Virus record (IMG/VR): IMGVR_UViG_3300045988_062157
Coordinates: 1-42,837 of that record
DNA from: a virus
Strand: one strand, 5' to 3'
Length of the DNA stretch: 42,837 nucleotides
A program made the translations under genes and the position numbers. Numbering within the stretch: position 1 is the stretch's first letter; every line of letters begins with the position of its first letter. Shown here one piece after another: positions 3,982-42,837 of this stretch. Under the pieces are notes generated by a model that did no database searches, was not told where the DNA came from, and was given only the letters and a program-made list of their open reading frames with translations.

Positions 3982-4066
3982 AAAGCGTGAGCATGATCGC
4001 GTGGAGACTCGGCAGGAGTTTGACTGCTGTAACGTACAAGATCAGGAAAATGAGGCGAGCGGGTGA
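3971..4066 (+). CDS. possible 31-aa coupled mini-ORF
   Basis: ATG 3971 overlaps the end of the upstream gene. Its TGA overlaps the GTG start of the next gene (GTGA). Below the track threshold. Confidence 0.25.
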   Translation: MRGRKREHDRVETRQEFDCCNVQDQENEASG

Positions 4067-4440
4067 ATTATAAGTTTACGATACGGGGCACGCTGCCGGG
4101 ACTGAACGAACTGATCGAGGCGGAACGCAGAAACCGGTTTATCGGCGCGAAGCTGAAAAAGCAGTATGAAGCGGTCGTTATGCGGGCGGCGCGAAGCCTC
4201 GGGAACGTGGAGTTTGAAGAACCGGTGTACATGGTGTACCACTGGTACGAGAAGGACCGGCGGCGGGATAAGGATAACATTTGCGCGTTTGGTCGCAAGG
4301 TCATTCAGGATGCGCTTGTGAAGGCGCGGTTCCTGCGGAATGACGGATGGAAGAACATCGCGGGGTTTGAAGACAGGTTTTACGTCGATAAGGACAAGCC
4401 GCGCGTTGTGGTGGAGATTTTGGAGGTGACGGAGGAATGA
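4063..4440 (+). CDS. rusA: RusA-like Holliday junction resolvase
   Basis: 125 aa, LPGLNELI..., RRRDKDNICAFGRKVIQDALVKARFLRNDGW pattern typical of the RusA family. GTG start. Confidence 0.6.
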   Translation: MNYKFTIRGTLPGLNELIEAERRNRFIGAKLKKQYEAVVMRAARSLGNVEFEEPVYMVYHWYEKDRRRDKDNICAFGRKVIQDALVKARFLRNDGWKNIAGFEDRFYVDKDKPRVVVEILEVTEE

Positions 4441-5255
4441 AAGAACTGAAATGCGAGCTGTTCAACGACAATTTCCAGAATTACAAGCGGTACGGCATCC
4501 CGAAAGCGCAGCTTGTCATTGCGGATATTCCGTATAACATCGGCGCGGACGCTTACGGTAGCAATCCGATGTGGTATGTCGGCGGAGACAACAAGAACGG
4601 CGAGAGCAAGAAGGCAAAAAGCAGTTTCTTTCGGACAGACGGCTATTTCAAGATTGCGGAATACATGCACTTCTGCAATCGGCTTTTGAAGAAAGAACCG
4701 AAGGAAAAGAACGCTGCACCGGCGATGGTCGTATTTTGCGCGTTCGACCAGATGCAGACGGTGATGGAGTACGGTAAGCGATACGGGTTCAAGAACAGTT
4801 ATCCGCTGTTTTTCACGAAAAACTACTCGGCACAGGTACTTAAAGCCAACATGCGCATTGTAGGTGCAACAGAATTTGCGGTTGTACTGTATCGCGACAA
4901 GCTGCCGAAGTTTAACAACGGCAGGCAGTACGACAAGGACGGCAAGGTCATTCGCGGAAGCGGAAAGATGGTGTTTGACCATATCGACTGGGAGCGGGAC
5001 GGCAGAGAGATTCCCAAGCTGCACCCGACGCAGAAGCCGGTGAAGGTGCTGAAAAAGCTGATTGAGATTTTCACAGACCCGGGCGACACGGTAATTGACC
5101 CATGCGCCGGGAGCGGTTCGACGCTGAGAGCGGCGCGGGAACTGGGAAGAAACAGCTATGGGTTTGAACTGGATAAGCAGTTTTACCGGCTTGCCAAAGA
5201 TGAAATGCTGAAAGAACCGGAAACGGTGCAGATCAGGATGGAAGGTGTGGTGTGA
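4437..5255 (+). CDS. DNA methyltransferase, beta-class (N6-adenine or N4-cytosine)
   Basis: Motif IV variant ADIPYN near the N-terminus and SAM motif I DPCAGSGST near the C-terminus. This circular permutation is typical of N6_N4 methylases. Confidence 0.85.
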   Translation: MKELKCELFNDNFQNYKRYGIPKAQLVIADIPYNIGADAYGSNPMWYVGGDNKNGESKKAKSSFFRTDGYFKIAEYMHFCNRLLKKEPKEKNAAPAMVVFCAFDQMQTVMEYGKRYGFKNSYPLFFTKNYSAQVLKANMRIVGATEFAVVLYRDKLPKFNNGRQYDKDGKVIRGSGKMVFDHIDWERDGREIPKLHPTQKPVKVLKKLIEIFTDPGDTVIDPCAGSGSTLRAARELGRNSYGFELDKQFYRLAKDEMLKEPETVQIRMEGVV

Positions 5256-13115: not shown

Positions 13116-13499
13116 ATGGACAAGCTGACCGCAAAACAGCGGGCATGGATTGATTACTATAAGCAGGGCAAGACAGCAGCAGAGGCGGCACGGCTTGCCG
13201 GTTACAGGGGCAATAACTCCGACGCGATAGGTTCGCAGAACTTGGTTAAACTTGGTAAATACGTTGCAGACCGCGACGAGCTGTTAGATCGTGCCCGTGT
13301 GGCGGATATGGCGGAGATTAACGAGTTTTGGAGCGATATCATGAGGGATAACACGGCGGACATAAAGGACCGTCTGAAAGCCTCTGAGCTGCGCGCACGG
13401 AGTATCGGCGCGTTTATCGAGCGTCGGGAAATCGTAGGAGCGCAGACGATCACGGTTAAGCTGCTCGATGATGACGAGGAAATGAAAGATACAGAGTAA
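13116..13499 (+). CDS. terS: terminase small subunit-like protein (P27-type)
   Basis: MDKLTAKQRAWIDYYKQGKTAAEAARLAGY... HTH N-terminus and ...DRLKASELRARS, typical of P27-family small terminases. Confidence 0.6.
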   Translation: MDKLTAKQRAWIDYYKQGKTAAEAARLAGYRGNNSDAIGSQNLVKLGKYVADRDELLDRARVADMAEINEFWSDIMRDNTADIKDRLKASELRARSIGAFIERREIVGAQTITVKLLDDDEEMKDTE

Positions 13500-13501
13500 C
13501 G

Positions 13502-13540
13502 GCTTGCAGCCGCTTCCGGGCGGTGCAGGCTTATTTTTTT
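13502..13540 (+). terminator. strong intrinsic terminator
   Basis: About 11-bp GC-rich stem gcttgcagccgc / gcggtgcaggc followed by ttattttttt. Confidence 0.7.
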
Positions 13541-13714
13541 ACCCTGTTTTGCAAGTTGGTGTTGCGCGTCCTGCAAAAACAGGCGTTTTCGCGCGAGCGG
13601 TGAAAAGACCGGTTAAAACCGAGGATTTGCGGTTTGCGCGTATCGGCAAAGGCTCAAAAGAATACTTGGGCAGGCTCATAGATGAGCAAAAATGACGGAG
13701 AGGAGGTGTAAAGC

Positions 13715-13837
13715 GTGGGTGCTGGTTATGGTAGCGGCAGGCTTGCCAATTTCGGCAGAACCAGAAATCGCCGCCGCAGTGTTGCGGTAGGCCGTCGCGC
13801 TGCTGGCGCTCGTGGCGCTCGTTCGCCCTCGACCTAA
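13715..13837 (+). CDS. possible 40-aa Arg/Gly-rich mini-protein
   Basis: AGGAGG (13701-13706) 8 nt before the GTG. Translation VGAGYGSGRLANFGRTRNRRRSVAVGRRAAGARGARSPST. Followed by a terminator. Confidence 0.3.
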   Translation: MGAGYGSGRLANFGRTRNRRRSVAVGRRAAGARGARSPST

Positions 13838-13857
13838 ACACCAAAACTCAAAAGTCC

Positions 13858-13893
13858 ACCGGTTGGGAAATGATTCTCAGCCGGTTTTCTTTT
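13858..13893 (+). terminator. intrinsic terminator-like hairpin
   Basis: Stem accggttg / cagccggt followed by ttttctttt. Confidence 0.5.
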
Positions 13894-13915
13894 GGGGAAA
13901 GAAAGGAGGTAGCAC

Positions 13916-14227
13916 ATGGGACGGAAAAAGAAAGTGATTGACCTCAAAGCGGTGCAAGAGCTTGCAAGTGAGGGCAATACACAAGAAGAAATTGCAAAGG
14001 CTTTGGACTTTTCACGATCGACGTTCAGTAACCGCGACGATGTAACCGAAGCATACTATAAGGGCGTAGCAGAAATGAAGCTCAGCTTGCGCCATTGGCA
14101 GTTTAACGCTGCTCGTGGCGGTAACATCCAGATGCTTATCTGGTTGGGCAAGCAGTACCTCGGACAGCGTGACACAGTAGAGAAAAAAATCGAAAGCGAA
14201 GGCGTGAAGGTGATTATCGATGTCTGA
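13916..14227 (+). CDS. HTH DNA-packaging protein (second small-terminase-like gene)
   Basis: NTQEEIAKALDFSRSTF HTH and IQMLIWLGKQYLGQRD motif. Overlaps the terL start by 8 nt. Confidence 0.6.
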   Translation: MGRKKKVIDLKAVQELASEGNTQEEIAKALDFSRSTFSNRDDVTEAYYKGVAEMKLSLRHWQFNAARGGNIQMLIWLGKQYLGQRDTVEKKIESEGVKVIIDV

Positions 14228-15458
14228 GGTGAAGCTCTCGCAGATCATCGGACCGGCATTTTACGCCGTTGCGCACGATGTGTTTGCACATGGTCACACG
14301 CATTACGATGAGAGCGGCGGCCGTGGCTCGCTGAAATCGTCGTTTGTGTCGATTGTCGTTCCGCTGCTGCTTATCCACAACCCCGGAACGCATGCGCTTG
14401 TGTTACGCAAGGTTGGAAACACCATCCGCGATAGTGTATACGCACAGTATGTATGGGCACTTGGTGAGTTGGGCATGGTTGACTACTGGGACGCGAAGGT
14501 ATCGCCGATGGAGCTGATATATCGCCCGACCGGACAGAAAATCATGTTTCGCGGCGCTGATGACCCGATGAAGATCAAGTCAATCAAGGTTCCGTTTGGT
14601 TATATTGCTGTTACGCATTTCGAGGAGAAAGACCAGTTCTCAGGACGCGCGGAAATCCGAACGATCTTGCAGTCTACAATGCGCGGCGGTGATAAGTATT
14701 GGAACTTTGAGAGTTATAACCCTCCGATCAGCCGCGACAACTGGGCGAACAAGGATAGTTTAGAAGAACGCCCTGATCGTCTCTGCCACCGCAGCACGTA
14801 CCTTGAAGCGCCGCGCGAGTGGTTGGGCGATCAGTTTATTTATGAGGCGGAGCACCTAAAACTGACGAACGAGCGAGCGTATCAGCATGAATACCTCGGC
14901 ATTCCGGTCGGCACGGGCGGCAACGTCTTTGAAAACATTGAACTGCGAGAAATCACAGATGATGAGGTGGCAACGTTCGATCATATCTATCAAGGCGCTG
15001 ACTGGGGATGGTTCCCCGACCCGTTCGCTTTTATCCGCGTCCACTACGACAGGGCGCGGGAGACGGTGTATTTTATCGATGAGATATACAAAAACAAGCT
15101 GAGTAACGAGGAAAGCGCCGGTATTATCATGGAGCGCGGCTATAATGATACGTTTATCACCTGCGACAGTGCAGAGCCAAAAAGCGTTGCAGACTACCGC
15201 GCTATGCGACTGCCTGCCAAAGAGGCCGTGAAGGGTCCCGGCAGTGTCGAGTACGGCATGAAGTGGCTGCAGCGCAGGACACTTGTCATCGACCGCAAGC
15301 GAACGCCGCACGCCTATGATGAGTTTGTGAACTATGAGTATGAGCGCGACAAGGATGGCGAGATCATCAGCGGATATCCAGATGAAAAGAACCATCTGAT
15401 TGACGCCACGAGATACGCCCTTGAGCGCGTTTACAGAAGAATGGGAGTGATTGCTTGA
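14220..15458 (+). CDS. terL: terminase large subunit (PBSX-like)
   Basis: Walker A-like GGRGSLKS, 412 aa, immediately upstream of portal. Confidence 0.9.
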   Translation: MSEVKLSQIIGPAFYAVAHDVFAHGHTHYDESGGRGSLKSSFVSIVVPLLLIHNPGTHALVLRKVGNTIRDSVYAQYVWALGELGMVDYWDAKVSPMELIYRPTGQKIMFRGADDPMKIKSIKVPFGYIAVTHFEEKDQFSGRAEIRTILQSTMRGGDKYWNFESYNPPISRDNWANKDSLEERPDRLCHRSTYLEAPREWLGDQFIYEAEHLKLTNERAYQHEYLGIPVGTGGNVFENIELREITDDEVATFDHIYQGADWGWFPDPFAFIRVHYDRARETVYFIDEIYKNKLSNEESAGIIMERGYNDTFITCDSAEPKSVADYRAMRLPAKEAVKGPGSVEYGMKWLQRRTLVIDRKRTPHAYDEFVNYEYERDKDGEIISGYPDEKNHLIDATRYALERVYRRMGVIA

Positions 15459-16876
15459 CGATCATTGAAAAACTGAAAGAGCTCGGCTATAACACAATCG
15501 CCCCCGAGTTTTACGGTAAGGTTGCGGAGTGGCGCAGCTGGTATGTGGGTGATGTGAAGTCATTCCACCATTACAAGGTGCGGAACTGCGGCAGAACCGT
15601 GCATTGCAAGCGATATACGCTCGGTATGGCGAAGAAGTTAGCCGAGGACTGGGCGAACCTGCTCATGAACGAAAAGGTAAATATCACCTTGGAGGGCGAG
15701 AAAGAACAGGAGTTCGTCGACCGCATCTTTGAAGAGAACAACTTCGAGGTAAAGGCGAACGAGATGCAGGAAATGAAGTCTGCACTGGGTACGGTCGCAT
15801 ACATTCCGCGTGTTGTCGGTGCAGTGTCGGACGGCGGACAGCCTATTGTGGGCGCAGCAAACGGCATTCAGATTGATTATGTGACTGTAGAGCACATTTT
15901 CCCTCTGGCATGGCAGAACGGCGTTATCATGGAATGCGCGTTCGACAGCAGAACCACCGTGAAAGGCGAGGATTACTGCTATCTGCAAATCCACAAGCGA
16001 AATGAAAACGGCTTTTACGACATCGAAAACCGCATTTTCAAAATCACAAATGAAAGTTTGTCCGAAGAAAGCCTTGCAAGCGTGCCGGGGTTTGAAAAAA
16101 TTCCACCCGTTGTGCATACCGGTTCGAACAAGCGGCAGTTTGTGATTGATCGTTTGAACATCGCGAACAACTTTGATTATTACATTCCGCTCGGCATTCC
16201 GGTCTATGCAAACGCGATTGACGTTCTGAAAGGCGTTGATATCGCATACGACAGCTATGTAAACGAGTTTCTGCTCGGCAAAAAGCGCATTATGGTCAAG
16301 CCTGCTGCAACGCAGTATCTTGACGGTGAGCCGGTGTTTGACCCGGACGAGCTCGCATATTATGTGCTGCCGGAGGATACGCAGGACGGCAATGTAATTG
16401 AGCCTATCGACATGTCGCTGCGAACCAGTGAGCATAACCGGGGCATTCAAGATCAGCTGAACCTACTGTCAACCAAGACAGGTTTCGGCGAGAGCTATTA
16501 TCACTTCGACGGCGCAAGCGTTGCAACCGCCACGCAGGTAATCAGCGAAAACAGCACCATGTTCCGCACGATCAAGAAGCATGAAATCATCCTTGAGCAG
16601 GCACTTGTGGAGCTGTGTCGCATTATTCTGCGGCTCGGAAATGACGCGATGAACGCCGGGCTGAACGAGGATGTGGAAATCAGCATTGACTTTGATGACA
16701 GCATCATCGAGGATAAGGGCACGGACTTCACGCGAGACATGCAACTGCTTAACGCAGGCATAATGAACGACTGGGAATTCCGCGCTAAGTGGCTCAATGA
16801 AGATGATGAGACGGCGAAGAAAATGCTGCCTAAAGCGCAGGATATGACAGACGAGGGGGAAGATGAGATTGAATGA
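15455..16876 (+). CDS. portal protein (SPP1 gp6-like)
   Basis: 473 aa, acidic C-terminus, located between terL and the head-morphogenesis gene. Confidence 0.85.
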   Translation: MTIIEKLKELGYNTIAPEFYGKVAEWRSWYVGDVKSFHHYKVRNCGRTVHCKRYTLGMAKKLAEDWANLLMNEKVNITLEGEKEQEFVDRIFEENNFEVKANEMQEMKSALGTVAYIPRVVGAVSDGGQPIVGAANGIQIDYVTVEHIFPLAWQNGVIMECAFDSRTTVKGEDYCYLQIHKRNENGFYDIENRIFKITNESLSEESLASVPGFEKIPPVVHTGSNKRQFVIDRLNIANNFDYYIPLGIPVYANAIDVLKGVDIAYDSYVNEFLLGKKRIMVKPAATQYLDGEPVFDPDELAYYVLPEDTQDGNVIEPIDMSLRTSEHNRGIQDQLNLLSTKTGFGESYYHFDGASVATATQVISENSTMFRTIKKHEIILEQALVELCRIILRLGNDAMNAGLNEDVEISIDFDDSIIEDKGTDFTRDMQLLNAGIMNDWEFRAKWLNEDDETAKKMLPKAQDMTDEGEDEIE

Positions 16877-18042
16877 AGTATCCAATCACACCGGAATACC
16901 TCGACGCAGCGCCCGAACCGATTGCGATTGCAATGCGAGAGCTCGAAAAGGACATCTTGCGCGAGATATGTTCACGCTTTAAGCTGACCGGCGAACTGAA
17001 CGAGGTTGCCATGAACGATATCCGCGCGCTGCGTGCGCAAGGCCTCGACATGGAGACCATCGAGAAAATGATAGCGAAGCACAGCAAGGAAACACTGCCT
17101 CAGGTGCAGGAAGCACTTGACCGTGTTGTTGAATACAACCAGAAGTATTACAACGAGCTTGCAAGCAAGGCGAGCATTGCTGAACCGCTTTTCTGGGTGA
17201 CGGCTGCGGATATTGCGCAGATACAGTCACAGACGCTTGACGGATACCGCAACATTACACGCTCTCTCGGTTTTGCACTGCAAACAAACGGAAAGGTTAC
17301 ATTTCAGCCGATTGCAAAGGCGTATCAAACCGCCCTTGACAAAGCAGAAGTGAAAATGCAGTCCGGCGCGTTTACGTTGCAGCAGTCACTTGAGGATGCA
17401 GTTAGAGAGCTTGCAGACAGCGGCATATACACGATTGACTATGCGACAGGGCATAGGGACCGTGCAGACGTTGCAGCGCGCAGAGCTATTTTCACGGGGC
17501 TAAATCAGCTCACCTCGAAATACACGGAAACAGCTACGGAAACACTGGAAACTGACCTGTACGAAATCACCGCCCATCGCGGCGCGCGTGATAAAGGCGC
17601 AGGATGGAAGAACCACAAGGCATGGCAAGGCAAGGTTTACAGCACGAAAGACGGCAGCAAATACCCGAATATTTACAAGGTTTGTGGATTGGGTGCTGTT
17701 GACGGTCTGGAGGGCGCTAACTGTAGGCATCATCGGCATGCGTTTTTAGAGGGCGTTTCTGAGCGCGTCTACACAGACGACGAGCTTGCGAACATCGACC
17801 CGCCGCCTGTGGAGTTCGAGGGGCGCACGTACAGCGCCTATGAAGCAACGCAAATGCAGCGCAAGATAGAACGCACAGTGCGCAAACTGGAGCGCCGCAG
17901 AGCCGCGTACAACGCCGCAGGAATGACGGGCAAGGAAGAGCAAACAGGCATCCGCATTCGCCGATTGAAGAAAGAATATCGCGAATTCAGCCGGGCGGCG
18001 AGCCTGCCGACGCAGACCAACCGCATGAAAGTAATTGAATAA
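16873..18042 (+). CDS. minor capsid/head morphogenesis protein (SPP1 gp7 / Mu F-like)
   Basis: ITAHRGARDKGAGWKNHKAWQGKVYS...GLEGANCRHHRHAF motif region typical of this family. Confidence 0.75.
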   Translation: MKYPITPEYLDAAPEPIAIAMRELEKDILREICSRFKLTGELNEVAMNDIRALRAQGLDMETIEKMIAKHSKETLPQVQEALDRVVEYNQKYYNELASKASIAEPLFWVTAADIAQIQSQTLDGYRNITRSLGFALQTNGKVTFQPIAKAYQTALDKAEVKMQSGAFTLQQSLEDAVRELADSGIYTIDYATGHRDRADVAARRAIFTGLNQLTSKYTETATETLETDLYEITAHRGARDKGAGWKNHKAWQGKVYSTKDGSKYPNIYKVCGLGAVDGLEGANCRHHRHAFLEGVSERVYTDDELANIDPPPVEFEGRTYSAYEATQMQRKIERTVRKLERRRAAYNAAGMTGKEEQTGIRIRRLKKEYREFSRAASLPTQTNRMKVIE

Positions 18043-34604: not shown

Positions 34605-35702
34605 TCAACGAATAGAGACGACTTTTTTCTGCGCTTTCTTCCTGCTCTCGCTCGCAAAACTGAGCACCTTTAACGAGGCGTTCGTGAACGCTTCATCGGA
34701 GAGGTGCGTATAAATATGCGACGTCATGGTAATTGACTTGTGTCCCAGAAAATCCTTTGCAACGTTGATCGGCACGTCGGCGGACTGCAAATCAGTCGCG
34801 TATGTATGCCGCAGGCAGTACGGCGTGAGATCGTCAGCCACGACGGATGTCGCCGGGTCGATCGCGCCGCGTACCATCTGCGCGCCCATGTCGAGGTCAA
34901 GCGCCTGTTTAAACGAGCGCCACATCTGTTTCATGGACGTTTCGGTGTGCGGCAGGCCGGTGGTCGGCTGCGTGAAGAGATAGCCGCTGTCCTGCTTCGC
35001 CCATTTCAGACGCTTGTACAGCGGATACGGGCAAGGAACGCGACGATCACCATAGTCTGTCTTGGCGCTGTGCAGCACGATAACGTGCCCCTTGAAGTCG
35101 ATATCCTCCCATCGCGCTTTCCTGGTTTCCTCTGGACGCGCTCCTGTATAGAGCATGAACACAACCCAGAGACCGGCGCGGTGCGTGCGCGCTACGTTGA
35201 AAATATGCTTGCGTTCATCCTCTGTAATCGCGCGATGTGTGCCGTTTGTGGTCTTTGGCATAACAATACCCTCTGCCGGGTCGAAAGCCACTACGCGCGA
35301 GATACGCGCCTGCTTGAAGCCCTGCCGGATAAGGTCGCGCAGCTTGCGAGCCTGTGACTGCGATTTCCCGGCGCACTCGTTCATTATCATCTGCAAGTGG
35401 ATTGTCTGCACGTCCTTTAAGCGACGATTTCCGATTGCAGGAGAGATATAGTTCTTGACGTAGGCCTCGAGCTGATGGTAGGTCTTGTCGGAGACGTTGC
35501 CTTTTTTGTACGCTTCAAGGTATTTGAAAAACCACTTATCAACGCTCGTGTTCTCGTTCACCGCGTCTACACCTTCTTCAAGGCGGCGCTTTTTCTCGTC
35601 GACTTTCCGCCAGAGTTCGCGCTCTGTCTTTGCGGTTACGTCGTACCGTTTGCCCTTGAACGTGAAGGTCTCACGGTAATAACCGTCGGCATTCTTTTTC
35701 AT
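34605..35702 (-). CDS. int: tyrosine integrase
   Basis: GGAGG precedes the ATG at 35702 (MKKNADGYYRETF...). SAM-like N-domain. Catalytic signature TGARPEE, CLRHTYAT, GHKSITMTSHIYTH. Confidence 0.9.
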   Translation of the reverse strand: MKKNADGYYRETFTFKGKRYDVTAKTERELWRKVDEKKRRLEEGVDAVNENTSVDKWFFKYLEAYKKGNVSDKTYHQLEAYVKNYISPAIGNRRLKDVQTIHLQMIMNECAGKSQSQARKLRDLIRQGFKQARISRVVAFDPAEGIVMPKTTNGTHRAITEDERKHIFNVARTHRAGLWVVFMLYTGARPEETRKARWEDIDFKGHVIVLHSAKTDYGDRRVPCPYPLYKRLKWAKQDSGYLFTQPTTGLPHTETSMKQMWRSFKQALDLDMGAQMVRGAIDPATSVVADDLTPYCLRHTYATDLQSADVPINVAKDFLGHKSITMTSHIYTHLSDEAFTNASLKVLSFASESRKKAQKKVVSIR

Positions 35703-35809
35703 TGTTGAATTTCCTCCTATTTTGTCGTATAATAAGAGGGTAGTAACGTTCCTCAAATGTACTACCCTCGAACCGCCTGCCGGATTGCCCTCCGGTGGGC
35801 GGTTTTTGC

Positions 35810-36373
35810 TTATTGCGCGCACTTTGCGCAAGGGGTATAACCCTTGTTGGAAGCGTCTGCTATTGTGGTCTGGATCGCGTTTTCGCCTGCACAGGACTGC
35901 GACAGGTGGTAACGCTTGCCGGATGGTGTGATGTAGGCGGTAGGACTTTCAGGGTCCTCTCCATCGTCCAGATGGGCGGTATAGTCATATCCGCCGATGT
36001 CGTCCTCATCGGGTTCGAGGCCATACTCCCAACAAGCGTCTTTCCAGCCTTCTTCGTATGCTTGCTGCGTCAGATCCTCAACGGAACTTTTCTCGTTCGA
36101 CAGCTCGTTATATGCGGCTTTTTCGGCGTCAAGCTGTGACTGCAAGTCTGAAATCTGCGTTTTTAGATCGCCTATCTGCGACTGCTGCTCACTTATGGTC
36201 TCAGTTGCTTCTGCGTATTTCTGCTTTGCAGGTGCGTTTTCGTCGTTCGCGATATACAACAGTATCGCAAGCACAATTACCAACATTACCAGAAATAATA
36301 TGCTGAATGATATAGCGTATTCTTTACGGTAATACTTCGCTCGCTCTTTGTCGAGCAGATCGGTTGCTTTCAC
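35810..36373 (-). CDS. membrane-anchored coiled-coil protein with C-terminal YHxxxxC...CxxC motif (lysogeny-side moron)
   Basis: TM helix ISFSILFLVMLVIVLAILLYI, heptad-like region (QIGDLKTQISDLQSQLD), C-terminus GKRYHLSQSCAG...GYTPCAKCAQ. Confidence 0.6.
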   Translation of the reverse strand: MKATDLLDKERAKYYRKEYAISFSILFLVMLVIVLAILLYIANDENAPAKQKYAEATETISEQQSQIGDLKTQISDLQSQLDAEKAAYNELSNEKSSVEDLTQQAYEEGWKDACWEYGLEPDEDDIGGYDYTAHLDDGEDPESPTAYITPSGKRYHLSQSCAGENAIQTTIADASNKGYTPCAKCAQ

Positions 36374-36426
36374 CTTGCACCCTTCCTTTACTTATGGTAA
36401 AATGTGTGTGCAAGGTCTCGCCTTGT

Positions 36427-36467
36427 AAAAATGCCTGTTTGGTGGTAGCGCACCGGCAGGCATTTTT
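36427..36467. terminator. bidirectional terminator
   Basis: aaaaatgcctg ... caggcattttt with inner ggtg/cacc pairing. Confidence 0.6.
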
Positions 36468-36776
36468 TAAATTTTTTTGTGCACTTTTTGAGATTGTATA
36501 CTTACTTTGTCAATTATGGTTTTTTGCGGGTTTTTGCTGTTTTTTACCGGTGCAGGCTTCAACAAAACATCAACAATTCTCTAAAACGTTCCGAAATCCT
36601 GCTTTTCCTGTTTCGTCCCCGTCGTTCTGTCAATTTACATTTTGCACAGTGTCAATTAGACTATACTCGTAGCTACAGCAGAGCATGCTCACCCCGAAAC
36701 GGGGCAGGCATTGGAGTTATGCATGGCGGGGTATGCTCCCGCCGCTCCTTTCCACCTAACGGAAAGCGAGGTTATC

Positions 36777-37481
36777 ATGAACGAACTCATTACTGTAAAT
36801 TACGACAACGAACAGCCGACTTTATCGGCACGTGAACTGCACGACTTTCTGGAAGTCGGCGCGAATTTCCGCCACTGGTTCCCGCGCATGTGCGAATACG
36901 GCTTTGAAGAAGGAAAAGACTTTCGGACATTTTTGACCGAAAGTTCCGGTGGCCGTCCGGCGCAGGATGCCGAAATCACCATCGACATGGCGAAGGAGCT
37001 TTGTATGCTTCAGCGCAACGACAAGGGCAAGCAGGCGCGTCAGTATTTCTTGCAGCTGGAACGCGACTGGAACAGCCCGGAAAAAGTCATGGCTCGCGCC
37101 TTGCAGATCGCACACAAGCGCATTCACACACTCTCGGAGAAGATCGAGCAGGACGCTCCCAAGGTGCTTTTCGCGGACAGCGTCGCGGCGTCGCACACGT
37201 CCATTCTGATTTTCGACCTCGCGAAGATCGTCAAGCAGAACGGCGTTGACATGGGCGGCAAGCGGCTGTTTGCATGGATGCGCGATAACGGCTATCTGGT
37301 GCGCAGACAGGGCACGGATTACAACATGCCCACACAGCGCAGCATGGAGCTCGGTTTGTTCGAGGTCAAGGAAACCAGCGTCACGCACTCCGACGGCCAT
37401 ATCAGCGTAAACAAAACGCCGAAAGTGACCGGCAAGGGTCAACAGTATTTCATTTCAAAACTGCTGGGCGAAAGGAGCTAA
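36777..37481 (+). CDS. antirepressor (AntA-like N-domain, KilAC-like C-domain)
   Basis: LSARELHDFLEVGANFRHWFPRMCEYGFEEGKDF, and LFADSVAASHTSILIFDLAKIVKQNGVDMGGKRLFAWMRDNGYL. Confidence 0.8.
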   Translation: MNELITVNYDNEQPTLSARELHDFLEVGANFRHWFPRMCEYGFEEGKDFRTFLTESSGGRPAQDAEITIDMAKELCMLQRNDKGKQARQYFLQLERDWNSPEKVMARALQIAHKRIHTLSEKIEQDAPKVLFADSVAASHTSILIFDLAKIVKQNGVDMGGKRLFAWMRDNGYLVRRQGTDYNMPTQRSMELGLFEVKETSVTHSDGHISVNKTPKVTGKGQQYFISKLLGERS

Positions 37482-37487
37482 TCACCG

Positions 37488-37754
37488 ATGGAATACGGAA
37501 ACGGACTTTACGTCAAACGCGATAAAACGACGATCAAGAGCGTTGAAGCCCTATATCACTATATCAACACGTTGCCGCTTACCAAGCACCAGCGAGGCAA
37601 GGCTATCCGCCTTGCTGAAACAGCTTTGACCAATGCCGAAAACAACGGATATCTTGTCGGCTTTGATGTAGCCGGTATGAGTGATCTTGTGTCAGCCACC
37701 GCATATTTTCTGCAAGGAGAACTGAAAGAATCCGGTATCAACACTCAACAGTAA
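37488..37754 (+). CDS. hypothetical protein (88 aa)
   Basis: Track ORF, 6 nt after the antirepressor stop. Confidence 0.55.
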   Translation: MEYGNGLYVKRDKTTIKSVEALYHYINTLPLTKHQRGKAIRLAETALTNAENNGYLVGFDVAGMSDLVSATAYFLQGELKESGINTQQ

Positions 37755-37773
37755 GTCCTGTTTATTGGACTTT
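37752..37773. repeat. 22-bp direct repeat copy 1 (taagtcctgtttattggacttt), a hairpin that also serves as a + strand terminator
   Basis: aagtcc/ggactt stem, 8-nt loop, followed by TTTT. Identical to 38980-39001. Confidence 0.9.
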
Positions 37774-37871
37774 TCAGCAAGGCTGTTTGCGTCCTCTTGA
37801 AAATCGAACAAACGTTATTTAGTACCACTTTAAGGCCGTAACAAAACGTTACACCCTTTTTATTTCGCGTA

Positions 37872-38957
37872 TCACTTCCACGGCAGAATAAACGGTTTTA
37901 TAATCCGTCCTCCGTGGTAGTTTGGTTCCGGGTCTATTGGTTCTTCAATCGCTATTGTAGTATCTGGAATCGTAAAACCGAGACCGCTTAGTTCCTCTAC
38001 CAGCTTTTGATATTTGGCGGAGTTCTGATTTTTTATACGAGTGAATCCGCTGAGAGATTTAGGACATAGGTCAGGAAGAAGATACCTTACACGGTAATAT
38101 ATACTGTGGTTTAACCTACGCTCTTTGTCGTGACGAATCCTGCGCTGCAATTCGTTGTATACTTCGATCTCGTCTTCGTCTCGATCATCAACAAACGGCC
38201 TCCAGCTTGTGTGAAGCATAGGCTGTTCTTCGCCTTTATAATAAATCCTATCTTGGTTTCTGTCGTCGAAAAAGACTATAGGGAATCGAACGAACGCGCC
38301 GTCTGGCTCTACATATCCGGTCTTTAGAATGAATTTCGGGAGTTTAGGAAAACGCCTATCATTTCCGTGCATGGTATACACACGCCCTTGATATTTGGCA
38401 GACACTGCACTTCTTCCGTTTTCCCATGGAATCAAAACAAGATCTGTGCCCATGGCCAGACAGTTGATTTTTACCTCATTGTAGATGCGGGTTCTGAGTG
38501 CAGCGCCAACCGAGATTTTATTTGAGTTTTCCTCGATTTTATGCTGCCACTCTAAGGCTTTGGAAAATCTTCCGATTTCCTCGTACCATTGCACGACGCG
38601 GTAGAAATCGTTTTCACTCCAACCGATGGGCGATTCAAACATGATTTCGGTTGCTTTCTCTATACATGCAAGTGCTAAGTCATACTTTTCAATTTTCCAC
38701 AGTCTGCTTGCATGCATCCTTAGAACATATTCCAACGAACCGGTGACACCTAAACCATCGTGCACCGATATTGAATTGTCAAAAGCAGGAACCGGAATAG
38801 ATTCAATGGACGAAACAGATGTTAAATCATGCGCTTCACCATCTACGGATATTCTTTCTGCATCGTAGATAATATCTCGATTGTCATAAAGAGCACCAGC
38901 AGGTTTTGGAAAGATGGATGATATACGTCCATTGTAAAAGTAAACCTCGTAACTCAT
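37872..38957 (-). CDS. orphan 361-aa protein (AT-rich moron, same strand as the repressor)
   Basis: Long clean ORF in a segment clearly more AT-rich than the rest of the genome. No family recognised. Confidence 0.75.
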   Translation of the reverse strand: MSYEVYFYNGRISSIFPKPAGALYDNRDIIYDAERISVDGEAHDLTSVSSIESIPVPAFDNSISVHDGLGVTGSLEYVLRMHASRLWKIEKYDLALACIEKATEIMFESPIGWSENDFYRVVQWYEEIGRFSKALEWQHKIEENSNKISVGAALRTRIYNEVKINCLAMGTDLVLIPWENGRSAVSAKYQGRVYTMHGNDRRFPKLPKFILKTGYVEPDGAFVRFPIVFFDDRNQDRIYYKGEEQPMLHTSWRPFVDDRDEDEIEVYNELQRRIRHDKERRLNHSIYYRVRYLLPDLCPKSLSGFTRIKNQNSAKYQKLVEELSGLGFTIPDTTIAIEEPIDPEPNYHGGRIIKPFILPWK

Positions 38958-38979
38958 TTTGACACTCTCCCGTGTTGCA

Positions 38980-39001
38980 TAAGTCCTGTTTATTGGACTT
39001 T
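38980..39001. repeat. 22-bp direct repeat copy 2
   Basis: Identical 22-mer taagtcctgtttattggacttt. Confidence 0.9.
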
Positions 39002-39028
39002 ACTTGTGATTAGAAAACTCGCACTTGT

Positions 39029-39046
39029 ATCGAACAATTGTTCGAT
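39029..39046. promoter_or_regulatory. perfect 18-bp palindrome atcgaacaattgttcgat upstream of the orphan gene
   Basis: Read directly. Operator-like. Confidence 0.5.
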
Positions 39047-39212
39047 ATATAATATTGTCATAACTTGACGGACGGTTTTGCTTGATATTGCCTTATATTG
39101 GTAATACCATAGTATCAAGAAAGGCAGGGAACAAAACATGGAAAATAATAAATATCCAAACTATGAGGCATTCGCCGCCTATCTCAATACATTTGAAGAA
39201 CCGGAAAAGATT

Positions 39213-39611
39213 TTATCCGGTCTGGTGGCGCTCTTGAAACCAAGTGGAAACTGCGTTGGCGATCGATCGGAGAAAGATTAAGTCCTCGTTAGACAAATCT
39301 TCGCCAGCAGGCATAATTCCTGCTGACACAAACACATCCATAATATGTTTTGCATTTATCTCTCTCGCTTTGGCTTCGGCCGGAGCGGGAGATTTTTTTA
39401 TTTCTGGATTTTCGAACTTCTCCAGATCGTCAACAGTGAATCCGAGTGCATGAACAATGGTTTTCAAAGTCCCGTATTGTGGGTCTTTGGTTTGTCCAGC
39501 GAAGATTTTATTGAGCGTTCCTTTAGGTATTCCGCACTCATCGCTGATCTGTTGCAGTGTTTTACCACTTTTTTGCTTCATTATATCCAGTGCGTCTACC
39601 AGCATTTTCAT
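39213..39611 (-). CDS. CI-like repressor (XRE-family HTH)
   Basis: KSGKTLQQISDECGIPKGTLNKIFAGQTKDP HTH. Divergent from the Cro-like gene. True start may be the second ATG, at 39605. Confidence 0.8.
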   Translation of the reverse strand: MKMLVDALDIMKQKSGKTLQQISDECGIPKGTLNKIFAGQTKDPQYGTLKTIVHALGFTVDDLEKFENPEIKKSPAPAEAKAREINAKHIMDVFVSAGIMPAGEDLSNEDLIFLRSIANAVSTWFQERHQTG

Positions 39612-39630
39612 TCCTCCTTTCTATGACTTC

Positions 39631-39659
39631 ATTATATAACTATACGCATGCAGTGTCAA
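39631..39659 (-). promoter_or_regulatory. repressor promoter: TTGACA-17 nt-TATAAT on the minus strand
   Basis: Plus-strand attata at 39631-39636 and tgtcaa at 39654-39659. Confidence 0.7.
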
Positions 39660-39667
39660 TAAAGAAA

Positions 39668-39758
39668 TTACCGAATTAGGTAAAAATATTTCCGATGCAC
39701 CATTGACAATTACCGTATTCGGTGATATTATAATAACATAGATTACCGAATATGGTAA
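39668..39758. promoter_or_regulatory. three 16-bp operators, consensus TTACCGAATATGGTAA
   Basis: ttaccgaattaggtaa 39668-39683, ttaccgtattcggtga 39710-39725, ttaccgaatatggtaa 39743-39758. Each has inverted TTACC/GGTAA half-sites. Confidence 0.75.
39703..39731 (+). promoter_or_regulatory. early rightward promoter: TTGACA-17 nt-TATTAT
   Basis: ttgaca 39703-39708, tattat 39726-39731. The middle operator fills the spacer. Confidence 0.7.
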
Positions 39759-39772
39759 CAGGAGGTGATTGT

Positions 39773-39982
39773 ATGAGATTCATTGAAAAAGAAATGCCGC
39801 GATTCAACGTGACCTACTATGATATTCAGCAGGTTATGAATTGCAGCGAAAAGACGGTACGAAACAAGATGCAAGGCATCACGGATTTTACTTACAGCGA
39901 AGCCCGTGTTATCCGAGACAAACTGTTCCCCGGTATGAATATCGAGTATCTGTTTGACCGCCATGACAACGAAAGCGCATAA
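39773..39982 (+). CDS. Cro-like early regulator (69 aa)
   Basis: GGAGGTG precedes ATG 39773. YDIQQVMNCSEKTVRNKMQG is HTH-like. First gene of the rightward operon. Confidence 0.6.
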   Translation: MRFIEKEMPRFNVTYYDIQQVMNCSEKTVRNKMQGITDFTYSEARVIRDKLFPGMNIEYLFDRHDNESA

Positions 39983-39997
39983 GCGGAGGTGAGAGCA

Positions 39998-40090
39998 ATG
40001 GATCCGGTACTGATGACGCTTAACATCGCAACAATGGTTATTCTGGCTGTGCTGGTTGTGCTGATGCGCAAGTGGTACAAGCGGAGGTGA
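39998..40090 (+). CDS. 30-aa single-TM peptide
   Basis: GGAGGTG RBS. Translation MDPVLMTLNIATMVILAVLVVLMRKWYKRR. Confidence 0.45.
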   Translation: MDPVLMTLNIATMVILAVLVVLMRKWYKRR

Positions 40091-40096
40091 ACGGCA

Positions 40097-40213
40097 ATGA
40101 AGAAAGTCAAAGAGATTTTCATGTCAGGCAGCTTTGGTATAGCGCTGTCCGGCTTCTCACTGGGGTTCTCTACTTGCGTATTGATTTGCAAGGTTTTCGA
40201 TTTACTTAAATAA
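40097..40213 (+). CDS. 38-aa hydrophobic peptide
   Basis: GGAGGTGA RBS. Translation MKKVKEIFMSGSFGIALSGFSLGFSTCVLICKVFDLLK. Confidence 0.45.
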   Translation: MKKVKEIFMSGSFGIALSGFSLGFSTCVLICKVFDLLK

Positions 40214-40420
40214 GGCGATAACCGAGACAATCAGCGAAGCAATAGCAAGTGCACGAGCAATCATAGCTTCACGCGAAGCCGCTTTGGCTTCTGTACGAGC
40301 ATCGTCGATTTGAGTTTGCGGTTTTCGGTTGGTTTCCTCCAACTGGTTCTGCATAGAATCACGGAATTCTAATTCGGCTTCCTGATTGACACGGCGAAGT
40401 TCTGAACCTAAGTGCATCAT
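40202..40420 (-). CDS. 72-aa tail-anchored coiled-coil protein, antisense to the early operon
   Basis: Minus-strand AAAGGAGG then ATGATG. Own extended -10 (TGTTATAAT; plus-strand 40443-40451). C-terminal TM helix ALAIASLIVSVIALFK. Confidence 0.55.
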   Translation of the reverse strand: MMHLGSELRRVNQEAELEFRDSMQNQLEETNRKPQTQIDDARTEAKAASREAMIARALAIASLIVSVIALFK

Positions 40421-40585: not shown

Positions 40586-40725
40586 CAAAGCAAGGCGAGG
40601 CGTGGCAAAGGCAACGCGAAGCAGGACACTGCAAGGGCATAGCTGGGCAGGGCATCGCAATGGCAAAGCACAGCGTAGATACGCAACGGAATTGCAAAGC
40701 GTAGACAGGCGTTGAAATGCCGCGC
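40586..40725 (+). repeat. T-poor degenerate GGCA(A/T)AG / GCAAGG array (block 1)
   Basis: Read directly. Shares gggcatagctKgg and tagaYacgcaacgg strings with block 3. Confidence 0.6.
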
Positions 40726-40769
40726 AAGGGCAAACAAATGGCAAACAAATGGCAGTCCAAGGGCAAACC
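40726..40769 (+). repeat. four phased 11-bp iterons AA(G/T)GGCA(A/G)(A/T)C(A/C)
   Basis: aagggcaaaca, aatggcaaaca, aatggcagtcc, aagggcaaacc in exact tandem. Confidence 0.85.
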
Positions 40770-40785
40770 AAGAGGAGGGAAGAAC

Positions 40786-41022
40786 ATGGAGGAACGGAGC
40801 TACAAGGAACTGCGGCAGGAAGTGAAAAACGACCTGATACGGATGTACGGCGGCGCGGTGCTTTTAACGCTCGAACAGTGCATGAAAGTGTACGGTTTGA
40901 CGGACAGAGACGCTGCAAAGAAGGTTATTCGTGCACCGAGGGTTCTCGGTGAAAGACGGGTGGTTTACTACATCGGCGACGTTGCAAGCGACATCGCAAA
41001 GCGGCGCGTCGGGAACGTCTGA
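40786..41022 (+). CDS. 78-aa putative DNA-binding protein (excisionase/HTH_17-like, tentative)
   Basis: AGGAGGG RBS. LLTLEQCMKVYGLTDRDAAKKVIRAP...RRVVYYIGDVASDIAKRR. Flanked on both sides by the 11-bp iterons. Confidence 0.45.
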   Translation: MEERSYKELRQEVKNDLIRMYGGAVLLTLEQCMKVYGLTDRDAAKKVIRAPRVLGERRVVYYIGDVASDIAKRRVGNV

Positions 41023-41097
41023 GGGCAAACCGAGGGCAGTCCAAGGGCAAACAAAGGGCAGACCGAGGGCAGTCCGAGGGCAGACAAAGGGCAACAG
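41021..41097 (+). repeat. seven phased 11-bp iterons (G/A)AGGGCA(A/G)(A/T/C)(C/A)(C/A/G)
   Basis: gagggcaaacc gagggcagtcc aagggcaaaca aagggcagacc gagggcagtcc gagggcagaca aagggcaacag. Only 2 T in 77 nt. Confidence 0.9.
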
Positions 41098-41188
41098 AAG
41101 AAGAAGGCAATAAAGCAATACAGCAATAACTACTCTCTCTCACTAACGTTCGAGAGAGTAGGACGCACACACGACAGGAGGAAAAATC

Positions 41189-42362: not shown

Positions 42363-42837
42363 TGAAATGCTTCAAGGGATTCGACAAGGACTTGCGCTGC
42401 AAGGGCTTTCAGTACGAAGTCGGCAAGGAGTACGAAACCGAGCGAGCGGAAATTTGCGATGAGGGGTTTCACGCCTGTGAGTTTCCGCTCGATGTGCTGG
42501 GATATTACAATCCAGCGGATAGCCGGTTCTGCGAGGTCGAGCTTGACGCAAACGAGCAGACGCACAACGACAGCATGCGCGTCGGAAAGAAAATCAAAAT
42601 CGGCGCGGAGATCGGGCTTTCCGGACTGGTTAAGGCTGGCGTGAAGTTTATCCTCGAAAAAGCTGATTTCGAGCATGCGAAAGCGACAAACACCGGCAAC
42701 TATAGCGCAGCGACAAACACCGGCAACTATAGCGCAGCGACAAACACCGGCAACTGTAGCGCAGCGACAAACACCGGCGACCGTAGCGCAGCGACAAACA
42801 CCGGCGACTGTAGCGCAGCGACAAACACCGGCGACTG
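42362..42837 (+). CDS. N-terminal part of the nonapeptide-repeat protein (DUF7666-like N-domain, tentative); runs off the right edge
   Basis: The ATG shares its A with the upstream TGA. MKCFKGFDKDLRCKGFQYEVGKEYETERAEICDEGFHACEFPLDVLGYYNP..., then ATNTG(N/D)(Y/C/R)SA repeats. No stop before the window end. Confidence 0.75.
   Translation, partial: MKCFKGFDKDLRCKGFQYEVGKEYETERAEICDEGFHACEFPLDVLGYYNPADSRFCEVELDANEQTHNDSMRVGKKIKIGAEIGLSGLVKAGVKFILEKADFEHAKATNTGNYSAATNTGNYSAATNTGNCSAATNTGDRSAATNTGDCSAATNTGD
42683..42837 (+). repeat. 27-bp tandem repeat (about 5.7 units), same unit as at 1..126
   Basis: gcgacaaacaccggc(a/g)ac(t/c)(a/g)tagcgca units read directly. Confidence 0.95.

Follow-up and report, generated by a model that had tools for sequence, protein, structure and literature searches.

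Genes that protect the lysogen have their classic home in the immunity regions of prophages, and in gut Clostridia these regions have seen hardly any experimental work. Two described systems offer precedents for the position and logic of the gene discussed here, namely, Ltp, which is encoded in a lysogeny module (PMC3952083), and TerI, which blocks packaging (bioRxiv 10.1101/2025.02.27.640495). A further point of reference is the MuF superfamily, of which PF06152 represents the MuF2 branch; the member that has been studied most, SPP1 gp7, binds the portal and has been described as a DNA-binding protein (PMC5576092). The gene in question, p361 (37872..38957, minus strand; 361 residues), lies in the immunity region of IMG/VR virus record IMGVR_UViG_3300045988_062157, the whole 42,837-nucleotide stretch of which was analysed (hereafter, the window). 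The window holds all, or nearly all, of the genome of a temperate siphovirus (~42.8 kb) that is uncultivated and from the human gut. p361 is an accessory gene, and its product is an N-terminal β/TPR-like module (residues 1–165) fused to a MuF/minor capsid protein 2 core (residues ~165–320). Our best explanation, taken as a whole, is that of an accessory MuF-core gene whose flanking direct repeat marks a join between phages and whose product interferes with other phages; we consider this explanation to be evenly poised between right and wrong.

The AlphaFold2 (AF2) model of p361 describes a soluble, multi-domain protein (predicted local distance difference test score, pLDDT, of 87). A small β domain (residues 1–60) precedes a set of TPR-like helical repeats (residues ~70–170), for which Foldseek returned probabilities of up to 0.99, with E-values of at least 0.18 over ~70–110 columns; the Pfam model TPR_8 matches 3 of 69 family members. 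Thereafter, an α/β domain (residues 170–260) leads into a long helix and two short ones that extend the fold to residue ~325, and the C-terminal tail is disordered yet conserved, carrying the motif EPxDPEPxYxGG. On reading the sequence, no signal peptide, lipobox or hydrophobic/membrane segment was found in the protein.

The relationship of the C-terminal half to minor head proteins emerges from several comparisons. PHROG 4611 (‘minor head protein’) matches residues 170–322 of p361 with an E-value of 2.8e-8, and PF06152 is matched by 25 of the 69 family members, with a best value of 2.2e-13 (although p361 itself scores 18.5 bits, which is below the Pfam gathering cut-off of 26.3). The matched region spans profile positions ~207–270 for the window protein and reaches to ~334 of 366 for its relatives, amounting to about one third of the model. 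When the family profile was compared using hhalign with the minor head protein of a Terrisporobacter phage, the gene for which directly follows that of the portal, residues 161–312 aligned with residues 190–339 (probability 98.5%, E-value 3.9e-15). Moreover, the best structural matches to p361 in BFVD are annotated ‘Minor capsid protein’ (2e-14). The core shares the motifs Y-x-G-R-V-Y-S, S-x-R-P-F and P-K-S-L with canonical MuF proteins, and, again as in canonical MuF, Cys-x2-Cys is kept in 59 of the 69 family members and His-x2-Cys in 47–59 of them; additionally, Arg192, Arg253, Asp257 and Arg259 are invariant, or nearly so, in the family alignment. The core is homologous to MuF, yet p361 is not a full member of that superfamily, lacking both the portal-adjacent position and the complete domain.

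Searches for a solved structure were unrewarding: a sequence-profile search of the PDB found nothing for p361, and Foldseek with the full model against the PDB gave weak TPR matches only. The MuF core has no solved relative, and no enzymatic fold can be assigned. We considered an ADP-ribosyltransferase (ART) fold for the MuF core, and this was dropped; two papers treat MuF as a head-targeting structural domain that is fused to ARTs, and not as an ART itself (PMC5512222, PMC9503650).

The preliminary description of this DNA, made from its letters alone, had called p361 an orphan belonging to no recognised family. This is no longer tenable, as the gene now belongs to a large and defined family of at least 295 clusters at E ≤ 1e-30, in which the MuF core has been found. 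The initial relatives formed 19 clusters at 90% identity, and the profile built from these retrieved 1341 representatives at E ≤ 1e-3, including 295 at E ≤ 1e-30; the best 150 matches are mostly near-full-length, with a few short proteins or partial matches among them. Where hosts are named, they are gut Clostridia (Oscillospiraceae, Butyricicoccus, Blautia, Ruminococcus and Gemmiger). Some relatives carry an added N-terminal domain, this being an FtsK-gamma domain, a zinc ribbon or, in a few distant members, a TM2 domain.

Two genomic settings can be told apart. In the neighbourhood of the 13 full- or near-full-length relatives (L053–L065), neither a portal nor a terminase was found; seven of them have a detectable integrase nearby, which in five cases lies just downstream on the same strand. 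The relative is likewise in the lysogeny module of two unrelated prophages (L031 and L034), one of which has a tyrosine recombinase and the other a serine recombinase. Proteins that match only residues ~170–320 (from Paenibacillus, Bacillus and Cohnella) are mostly encoded right behind the portal gene, with or without a terminase gene ahead of it, and these are ordinary MuF genes. Part of a head protein has thus been taken over by a protein of the lysogeny module. No conserved partner gene was found beside the family, the neighbours encoding a protein of 144 residues in L031, one of 186 residues in L034 and a bPH/SHOCT protein in Blautia phage Montmirail. The open-access texts that were searched contain no description of this family, or of MuF-like proteins in lysogeny modules.

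Montmirail (ON453898.1) is a cultured and inducible phage of Blautia coccoides, and at positions 3986–5017 it encodes a 343-residue protein, WAK79202.1, that adjoins the integrase. This shares only the N-terminal module with p361 (residues 3–167; probability 99.6%), its C-terminal half being unrelated and unannotated; the N-terminal module has, therefore, been joined to different C-terminal domains. The phage provides a possible model for the N-terminal module.

Relatives of the locus were collected in three ways: as contigs that encode an identical protein, as viral contigs that contain the 22-mer described below, and as viral contigs found through p88, an 88-residue gene (37488..37754, plus strand) that lies on the far side of p361 from the repressor; the last of these does not select for the 22-mer. 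The p361-less contigs described below are placed in the same phage group by a shared p88/Ant module together with the same stem-loop and LexA-box promoter region. Three arrangements were found. In 10 contigs, the repressor is followed by a hairpin, p361 and then other genes, with no second hairpin; in 14 contigs, including the window, the order is repressor, hairpin, p361, hairpin and p88-Ant (with another gene in the latter place in two contigs); and in 11 contigs, it is repressor, hairpin and p88-Ant, with one hairpin and no p361. Overall, p361 is present at the same site in 24 contigs and absent from 11, and an empty site with a single copy of the 22-mer, which the preliminary description had proposed looking for in related phages, does exist in those 11. 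In one of the empty-site phages (L013/L039), the repressor and small open reading frame (ORF) are of the window type (96 and 98% identical, respectively), and the alignment jumps from the left flank of p361 in the window to its right flank within the 22-mer; elsewhere, L013 aligns with the tail-to-integrase region of the window at 65–92%. The presence/absence polymorphism is thus genuine, with the 22-mer serving as a point of crossover.

The segment common to all p361 carriers runs from 37838 (or 37810) to 39134 and ends 4 nt before the next start codon. In this shared block of ~1.3 kb (37838..39134), p361 is accompanied by one stem-loop and by a LexA-box promoter, the 5′ untranslated region of the latter included. 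It is ~98% identical between the window and four other carriers (L018, L022, L027 and L030), whose tail, lysis and replication genes are 67–82% identical to those of the window; a recent horizontal exchange of the gene block is, therefore, indicated. The phages that share the block have repressors and integrases that are only 30–60% identical at the protein level. The left junction of the block varies, falling in at least three places (37838, ~37806 and ~37739). Seen by itself, the distribution of 37838–39134 shows that a single small segment has swept, very recently and by horizontal transfer, through a diverse group of phages.

The 22-mer itself, TAAGTCCTGTTTATTGGACTTT, occurs exactly twice in the window, in direct orientation (37752–37773 and 38980–39001); no further copy was found in the window even when 3 mismatches were allowed, and none was found in 100 shuffles. 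As had been claimed at the outset, the perfect copies bracket one gene, p361 being the only substantial ORF between them, and each can fold, on either strand, as a hairpin with a 6-bp stem (AAGUCC/GGACUU) and an 8-nt loop. The perfect identity of the copies holds for the window, but not for three related contigs (L037, L040 and L046), in each of which the two copies differ from one another at 3 positions. Across all copies of the 22-mer, the variable positions comprise three in the loop, one outside the stem and one within the stem, where a G·U pair is kept on the plus strand.

The two copies occupy different settings. The promoter-side copy (38980..39001) lies 22 nt upstream of the ATG of p361 and 23 nt before the −35 element of the LexA-box promoter, and it is kept in all p361-bearing relatives that have sequence on that side. 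The TAA with which p88 ends lies in the left copy (37752..37773). This copy is missing from the 10 p361-bearing contigs that lack p88, and it is the sole one in the 11 contigs that lack p361. All 16 of the p88 loci that were found independently of the 22-mer have the hairpin at the end of p88, with or without p361. Beyond the 22-mer, when the copies in the window are aligned with the empty-site relatives, similarity continues for ~45 nt in two diverged forms: the right copy matches the promoter of the L013 type, whereas the left copy and the 43 nt that follow it align with an intact promoter of the L016/L035 type, stopping inside the LexA box. The latter stretch (37774..37816, plus strand) is the dead remnant of another LexA-box promoter, of the ‘spacer A’ form, in which the spacer, a −35 element (TTGAAA) and the half box CGAACAAACGTT are kept, and it breaks off exactly where the intact relatives read on with CGCTATACT. 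Neither the 22-mer nor a LexA box was present beside the distant homologues in L031–L034, and the stem-loop is assigned to this phage group and not to the p361 family.

The 22-mers are thus a conserved stem-loop, present twice, that marks the upstream boundary of a putatively LexA-controlled promoter; they are neither cassette ends nor a target-site duplication. The direct repeat in the window records where recombination joined two phage lineages. Ant and p88, with a hairpin and a half promoter, came from one of them, and p361, with a hairpin, a promoter, the small ORF p47 and the repressor, came from the other; an exchange at the stem-loop yields the ‘empty’ arrangement that lacks the gene. 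We hold this account of the anatomy and origin of the repeat with considerable confidence.

The alternative is a mobile single-gene cassette whose ends are the two 22-mers, either as a target-site duplication or as short, attC-like hairpin sites for a site-specific recombinase that inserts and excises it. Its appeal is plain enough, given that the copies are identical, direct and hairpin-forming, that they exactly bracket one gene, that the empty sites hold exactly one copy, and that in L012 and L022 two hairpins bracket the gene though the upstream gene is not p88. However, ten gene-bearing contigs have a single copy, the left junction is variable, the segment contains no recombinase, and every p88 ends inside the hairpin whether p361 is there or not. 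Moreover, the 3 differences between the copies in each of L037, L040 and L046 are unlike a duplication made at insertion, and past the 22-mer the homology carries on through an entire promoter region, of which there are two diverged alleles. The cassette-end model is already largely refuted, and we rate it as highly improbable. The earlier proposal of a horizontally inserted moron cassette thus survives in part: the polymorphism and the horizontal exchange stand, but the 22-mers do not delimit a mobile unit.

Nor does base composition set the gene apart from its surroundings. An AT-rich segment within a backbone of 55–60% guanine + cytosine (GC) had been described; in fact, the average for the window is 52.7%, and the neighbours are as AT-rich as the gene, the values being 43.0% for p361, 43.9% for the repressor, 43.3% for the cro-like gene, 46.4% for p88 and 45.0% for the region 36150–40300. 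Low GC marks the whole immunity region, not a cassette. Of the features associated with morons, therefore, p361 has the variable presence at the same site but not the distinct base composition.

p361 is a functional accessory gene. It is under purifying selection, as judged from 26 full-length copies representing 17 DNA alleles: the ratio of nonsynonymous to synonymous polymorphism (pN/pS) is 0.21, and there are 8, 7 and 27 segregating sites at the first, second and third codon positions, respectively. As the preliminary description had noted, the gene is co-oriented with the CI-like repressor, an HTH_3 gene (39213..39611, minus strand) that lies 255 nt upstream. With regard to a further moron feature, an own promoter and terminator, the shared block holds, on the minus strand, no promoter match of at least 9/12 upstream of p361, there is no terminator after the gene, and inspection by eye together with the scan gave only poor promoter candidates, which coincide in part with the LexA box and differ from allele to allele. 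The repressor has a perfect promoter (TTGACA-17-TATAAT; 39659–39631, minus strand), and the promoter/terminator scan found no terminator-like site on this strand between the repressor and p361. Because of the perfect repressor promoter, the lack of a terminator in between and the lack of a convincing promoter of its own, the simplest reading would be that p361 is co-transcribed with the repressor by read-through, and we lean towards its expression in the lysogen.

The 11 related contigs that have no p361 at the site indicate that the gene is probably dispensable, and this bears on the possibility that p361 serves the infection cycle of its own phage, as an auxiliary MuF-like protein in the heads or at the portal vertex that may deliver the TPR-like module to the next host, in the way proposed for effectors fused to MuF. 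The homology with the MuF core would be accounted for in this way; MuF domains are known to load cargo into heads (PMC5512222; PMC5576092), and the resident phage has an SPP1-type portal (phrog_533 type; 15455..16876, plus strand). Against this, the gene is on the strand of the repressor and integrase, far from the late genes, whereas ~85% of phage muf genes are near a portal or terminase gene (PMC5576092), and it is missing at this site from 11 contigs of the same group. Moreover, a complete and canonical MuF2/minor capsid protein 2 gene (16873..18042, plus strand; PF06152 2.2e-76, phrog_581) already lies directly after the portal gene. To this protein p361 bears only a faint likeness (hhalign probability 8.7%), and the N-terminal two thirds of MuF2 are missing from it. 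Alongside the full MuF2 of the resident phage, p361 is thus an additional MuF-core protein, incomplete and divergent. A role in the resident infection cycle, accordingly, strikes us as improbable.

On the far side of the promoter-side stem-loop from p361 is a promoter-like site (39025..39053, plus strand) that points away from the gene. It consists of a −35 element (TTGTAT in the window, TTGAAT in most relatives), a 17-nt spacer and a −10 element, TATAAT (39048–39053); within the spacer lies a perfect LexA box, CGAACAATTGTTCG (39031–39044). A perfect 18-bp palindrome (39029–39046) had been reported just upstream of p361; it is present, but is actually 20 bp in length (39028–39047), and it is the CGAAC-N4-GTTCG box of the promoter that faces away from the gene. 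CGAAC-N4-GTTCG is the Bacillus-type LexA site (PMC4551915). The window contains one exact match to the LexA box where 0.07 would be expected, and, in every relative that has the region, the arms of the box are invariant and the N4 occurs in five forms. In sequence, position and conservation, the palindrome is, therefore, a Firmicutes-type LexA (SOS) box overlapping the promoter, and a putative site for LexA.

Downstream of this promoter, its start ~90–100 nt away, is the small ORF p47 (39138..39281, plus strand), which reaches, in antisense, into the 3′ end of the repressor gene. Loci that differ in their repressor-side sequence (L001–L050 region) have one or another of five unrelated sequence types at this position, of 47–60 residues and with p47 counted among them. 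Inside the repressor gene, there is a strong intrinsic-terminator-like hairpin (39361..39392, plus strand), with a 14-bp stem followed by TTTTTTT, that would end the p47 transcript. The LexA-box unit looks to be SOS-induced and repressor-type-specific, converging on the repressor gene, and p47 is a candidate for an SOS-induced cognate antirepressor or an antisense switch for induction; induction of these gut phages may proceed through this promoter and small ORF. A divergent consensus promoter beyond the repressor serves the cro-like gene, and three operator repeats, ATTACCGAAT..GGTAA, lie beside the repressor.

Given this neighbourhood, p361 might be supposed to be a regulator or sensor of the lysis–lysogeny decision, whether as a Rap- or AimR-like TPR receptor or as a modulator of the LexA-controlled antirepressor unit. 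It has TPR-like repeats, and Foldseek gave one weak match to a Rap regulator; in addition, it always adjoins the repressor and the LexA-box promoter and travels with that promoter. It has, however, no DNA-binding domain, and it is absent from L013 and L039 despite the same repressor, small ORF and promoter. Furthermore, one p361 allele (97–98% identical) spans repressors that are only ~30% identical, which a cognate regulator would not tolerate. We regard a regulatory function as very unlikely.

What, then, might p361 do? We picture a soluble, cytoplasmic protein that lysogens would produce when transcription from the repressor promoter reads through into the gene, and whose MuF core would engage the usual partners of MuF, namely, the portal vertex or else the head DNA of a phage. 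It would thereby disturb other phages as they assemble heads, package DNA or deliver it, and would act as a single-protein superinfection interference rather than an enzymatic defence. The head-protein core within a lysogeny operon, together with the genomic signature, suggests a structural decoy over an enzyme, and the greater similarity of the core to a foreign MuF type (phrog_4611) than to the resident one (phrog_581) fits, as weak evidence, a decoy aimed at other phages. Graded separately, an anti-phage role of any kind is plausible, albeit somewhat short of an even chance, and the MuF-decoy mechanism specifically is doubtful. Similarly doubtful is the fullest form of the proposal, in which a widespread family of MuF-core/TPR-like decoys, expressed in lysogens of gut Clostridia prophages, would dock on the portal vertex or packaged-DNA end of competitors and poison their assembly, packaging or delivery, the gene being exchanged as a unit with an SOS-controlled induction promoter.

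A different role outside the phage, that of a lysogenic-conversion gene that alters host physiology or gut fitness and has no part in phage–phage conflict, would suit the moron-like position and the horizontal spread, and would also suit the failure to match a defence family. In that respect, p361 has no match in PADLOC-DB 2.0 at E ≤ 1, the 69 family members give only four isolated matches there (E-value 0.0012 or weaker), and no NCBIfam model matches p361. Nevertheless, half of p361 is derived from a phage head protein, and the family is seemingly confined to prophage lysogeny modules, pointing to a partner that is phage-directed; a purely host-directed function is, in our judgement, unlikely.

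Several considerations count against an interfering MuF-core protein and against our account of the locus, and they are best taken together. Binding to the portal would have to carry over from full-length SPP1 gp7, and p361 has none of the N-terminal ~200 residues of canonical MuF2. The window subfamily lacks all four ligands of the putative zinc site (residues 183, 186, 217 and 220 are Ser, Ser, Glu and Gly, respectively), from which it would seem that the site has probably been lost and the fold kept. When the C-terminal half was modelled alone (pLDDT 79), it had no PDB match better than an E-value of 1.9. The MuF core has no known biochemical activity, and neither an effector nor a membrane anchor nor any known defence domain can be recognised in the protein. 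A head-protein mimic made in the lysogen could also harm the resident phage on induction, and no self-immunity gene for p361 is evident. With regard to the locus, the empty relatives are mosaic rather than isogenic with the carriers, and insertion and deletion cannot be told apart from them. Finally, the 22-mer stem-loop is a weak terminator at best; it could form the RNA 3′ end of, or an insulator for, the p88 transcript, or it could be a DNA operator, being centred ~70 bp upstream of the start site of the LexA promoter.

The surroundings of the locus may be described briefly. The head and packaging module comprises the terminase (13116–15458), the portal, the MuF2 and a capsid gene, and the integrase lies at 34605..35831. 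Ant (36711..37481, plus strand), an antirepressor with AntA and KilAC domains, forms with p88 a variably present module (36711..37754) that abuts the left stem-loop, and phages of this group may therefore carry two different antirepressor-type units, namely, the Ant-p88 module and the LexA-box unit. Just beyond the 3′ end of p361, there is a further stem-loop followed by TTTTTATTT (37832..37867, plus strand), which looks like a plus-strand terminator for transcription arriving from Ant-p88, albeit one that was not flagged by a simple terminator scan; it has no T-run on the minus strand. A search of Rfam with 36300–40300 gave two sub-threshold chance matches only, and no tRNAs were found.

Between the integrase and Ant, on the minus strand (35810–36373), a 187-residue protein is encoded that has an N-terminal hydrophobic segment, a coiled coil and a Cys-rich C-terminus. 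It gives weak matches to Rz-like spanins, and other genes stand in its place in related contigs; it is another variable lysogeny-module gene. Elsewhere in the window, at least five tandem 27-nt repeats (42655–42837) run up to its end, and the early region has 11-nt GGGCA-type repeats, in two clusters (40714–40783 and 41009–41111) that resemble iterons or an origin; copy numbers vary among related contigs. As to the occurrence of the phage, a metagenomic contig of 42,923 bp is 100% identical to the window across the 9.3 kb that was compared, and the exact 361-residue protein is recorded in 85 blocks of a public assembly collection. A DNA search with the immunity region and head genes found no close cultured phage.

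Among known systems, the LexA boxes of Bacillus phage GIL01 provide the counterpart of the palindrome, though not of p361: the window likewise has a perfect Firmicutes-type box between −35 and −10 elements, together with a small ORF whose sequence type varies with that of the repressor. Tum of coliphage 186 is a LexA-controlled antirepressor, and is a parallel to the candidate LexA-box unit of the window. As an instance of module exchange, the locus is a clean one, with a 1.3-kb block that is 98% identical across backbones differing by 20–30% and a repeat that can be explained as copies of a stem-loop. p361 is moron-like in its distribution, not in its composition, and it belongs to no catalogued defence family.

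With the MuF superfamily (SPP1 gp7 and Mu gpF; PF04233 ‘MuF1’ and PF06152 ‘MuF2’), the likeness lies in residues ~161–312 of p361, which are homologous to the central MuF core. The N-terminal half, by contrast, is an unrelated β/TPR-like module, and the gene sits beside the repressor and integrase, whereas a canonical muf gene comes after the portal. The superinfection-exclusion gene of the Ltp type, from Streptococcus thermophilus phage TP-J34, resembles p361 in being a single, extra, variably present gene of the lysogeny module on the lysogeny strand (PMC3952083). Ltp is, however, a surface lipoprotein that blocks DNA injection, and p361 has neither the signal peptide, lipobox and membrane segment nor any sequence similarity to Ltp. 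TerI, of the TERi system of Listeria prophage phi10403S, is akin to p361 in its logic, as it is encoded by a prophage, is non-enzymatic and is proposed to act on the packaging or assembly machinery of invaders (bioRxiv 10.1101/2025.02.27.640495), which is the logic proposed for p361. It differs in that it is small, is accompanied by two self-immunity proteins and targets the terminase, whereas p361 has no conserved partner gene; no evidence of homology between p361 and TerI was found, the two sequences not having been directly compared. If true, the decoy proposal would add to these systems a new, enzyme-free class of superinfection immunity that is built from a part of the virion.

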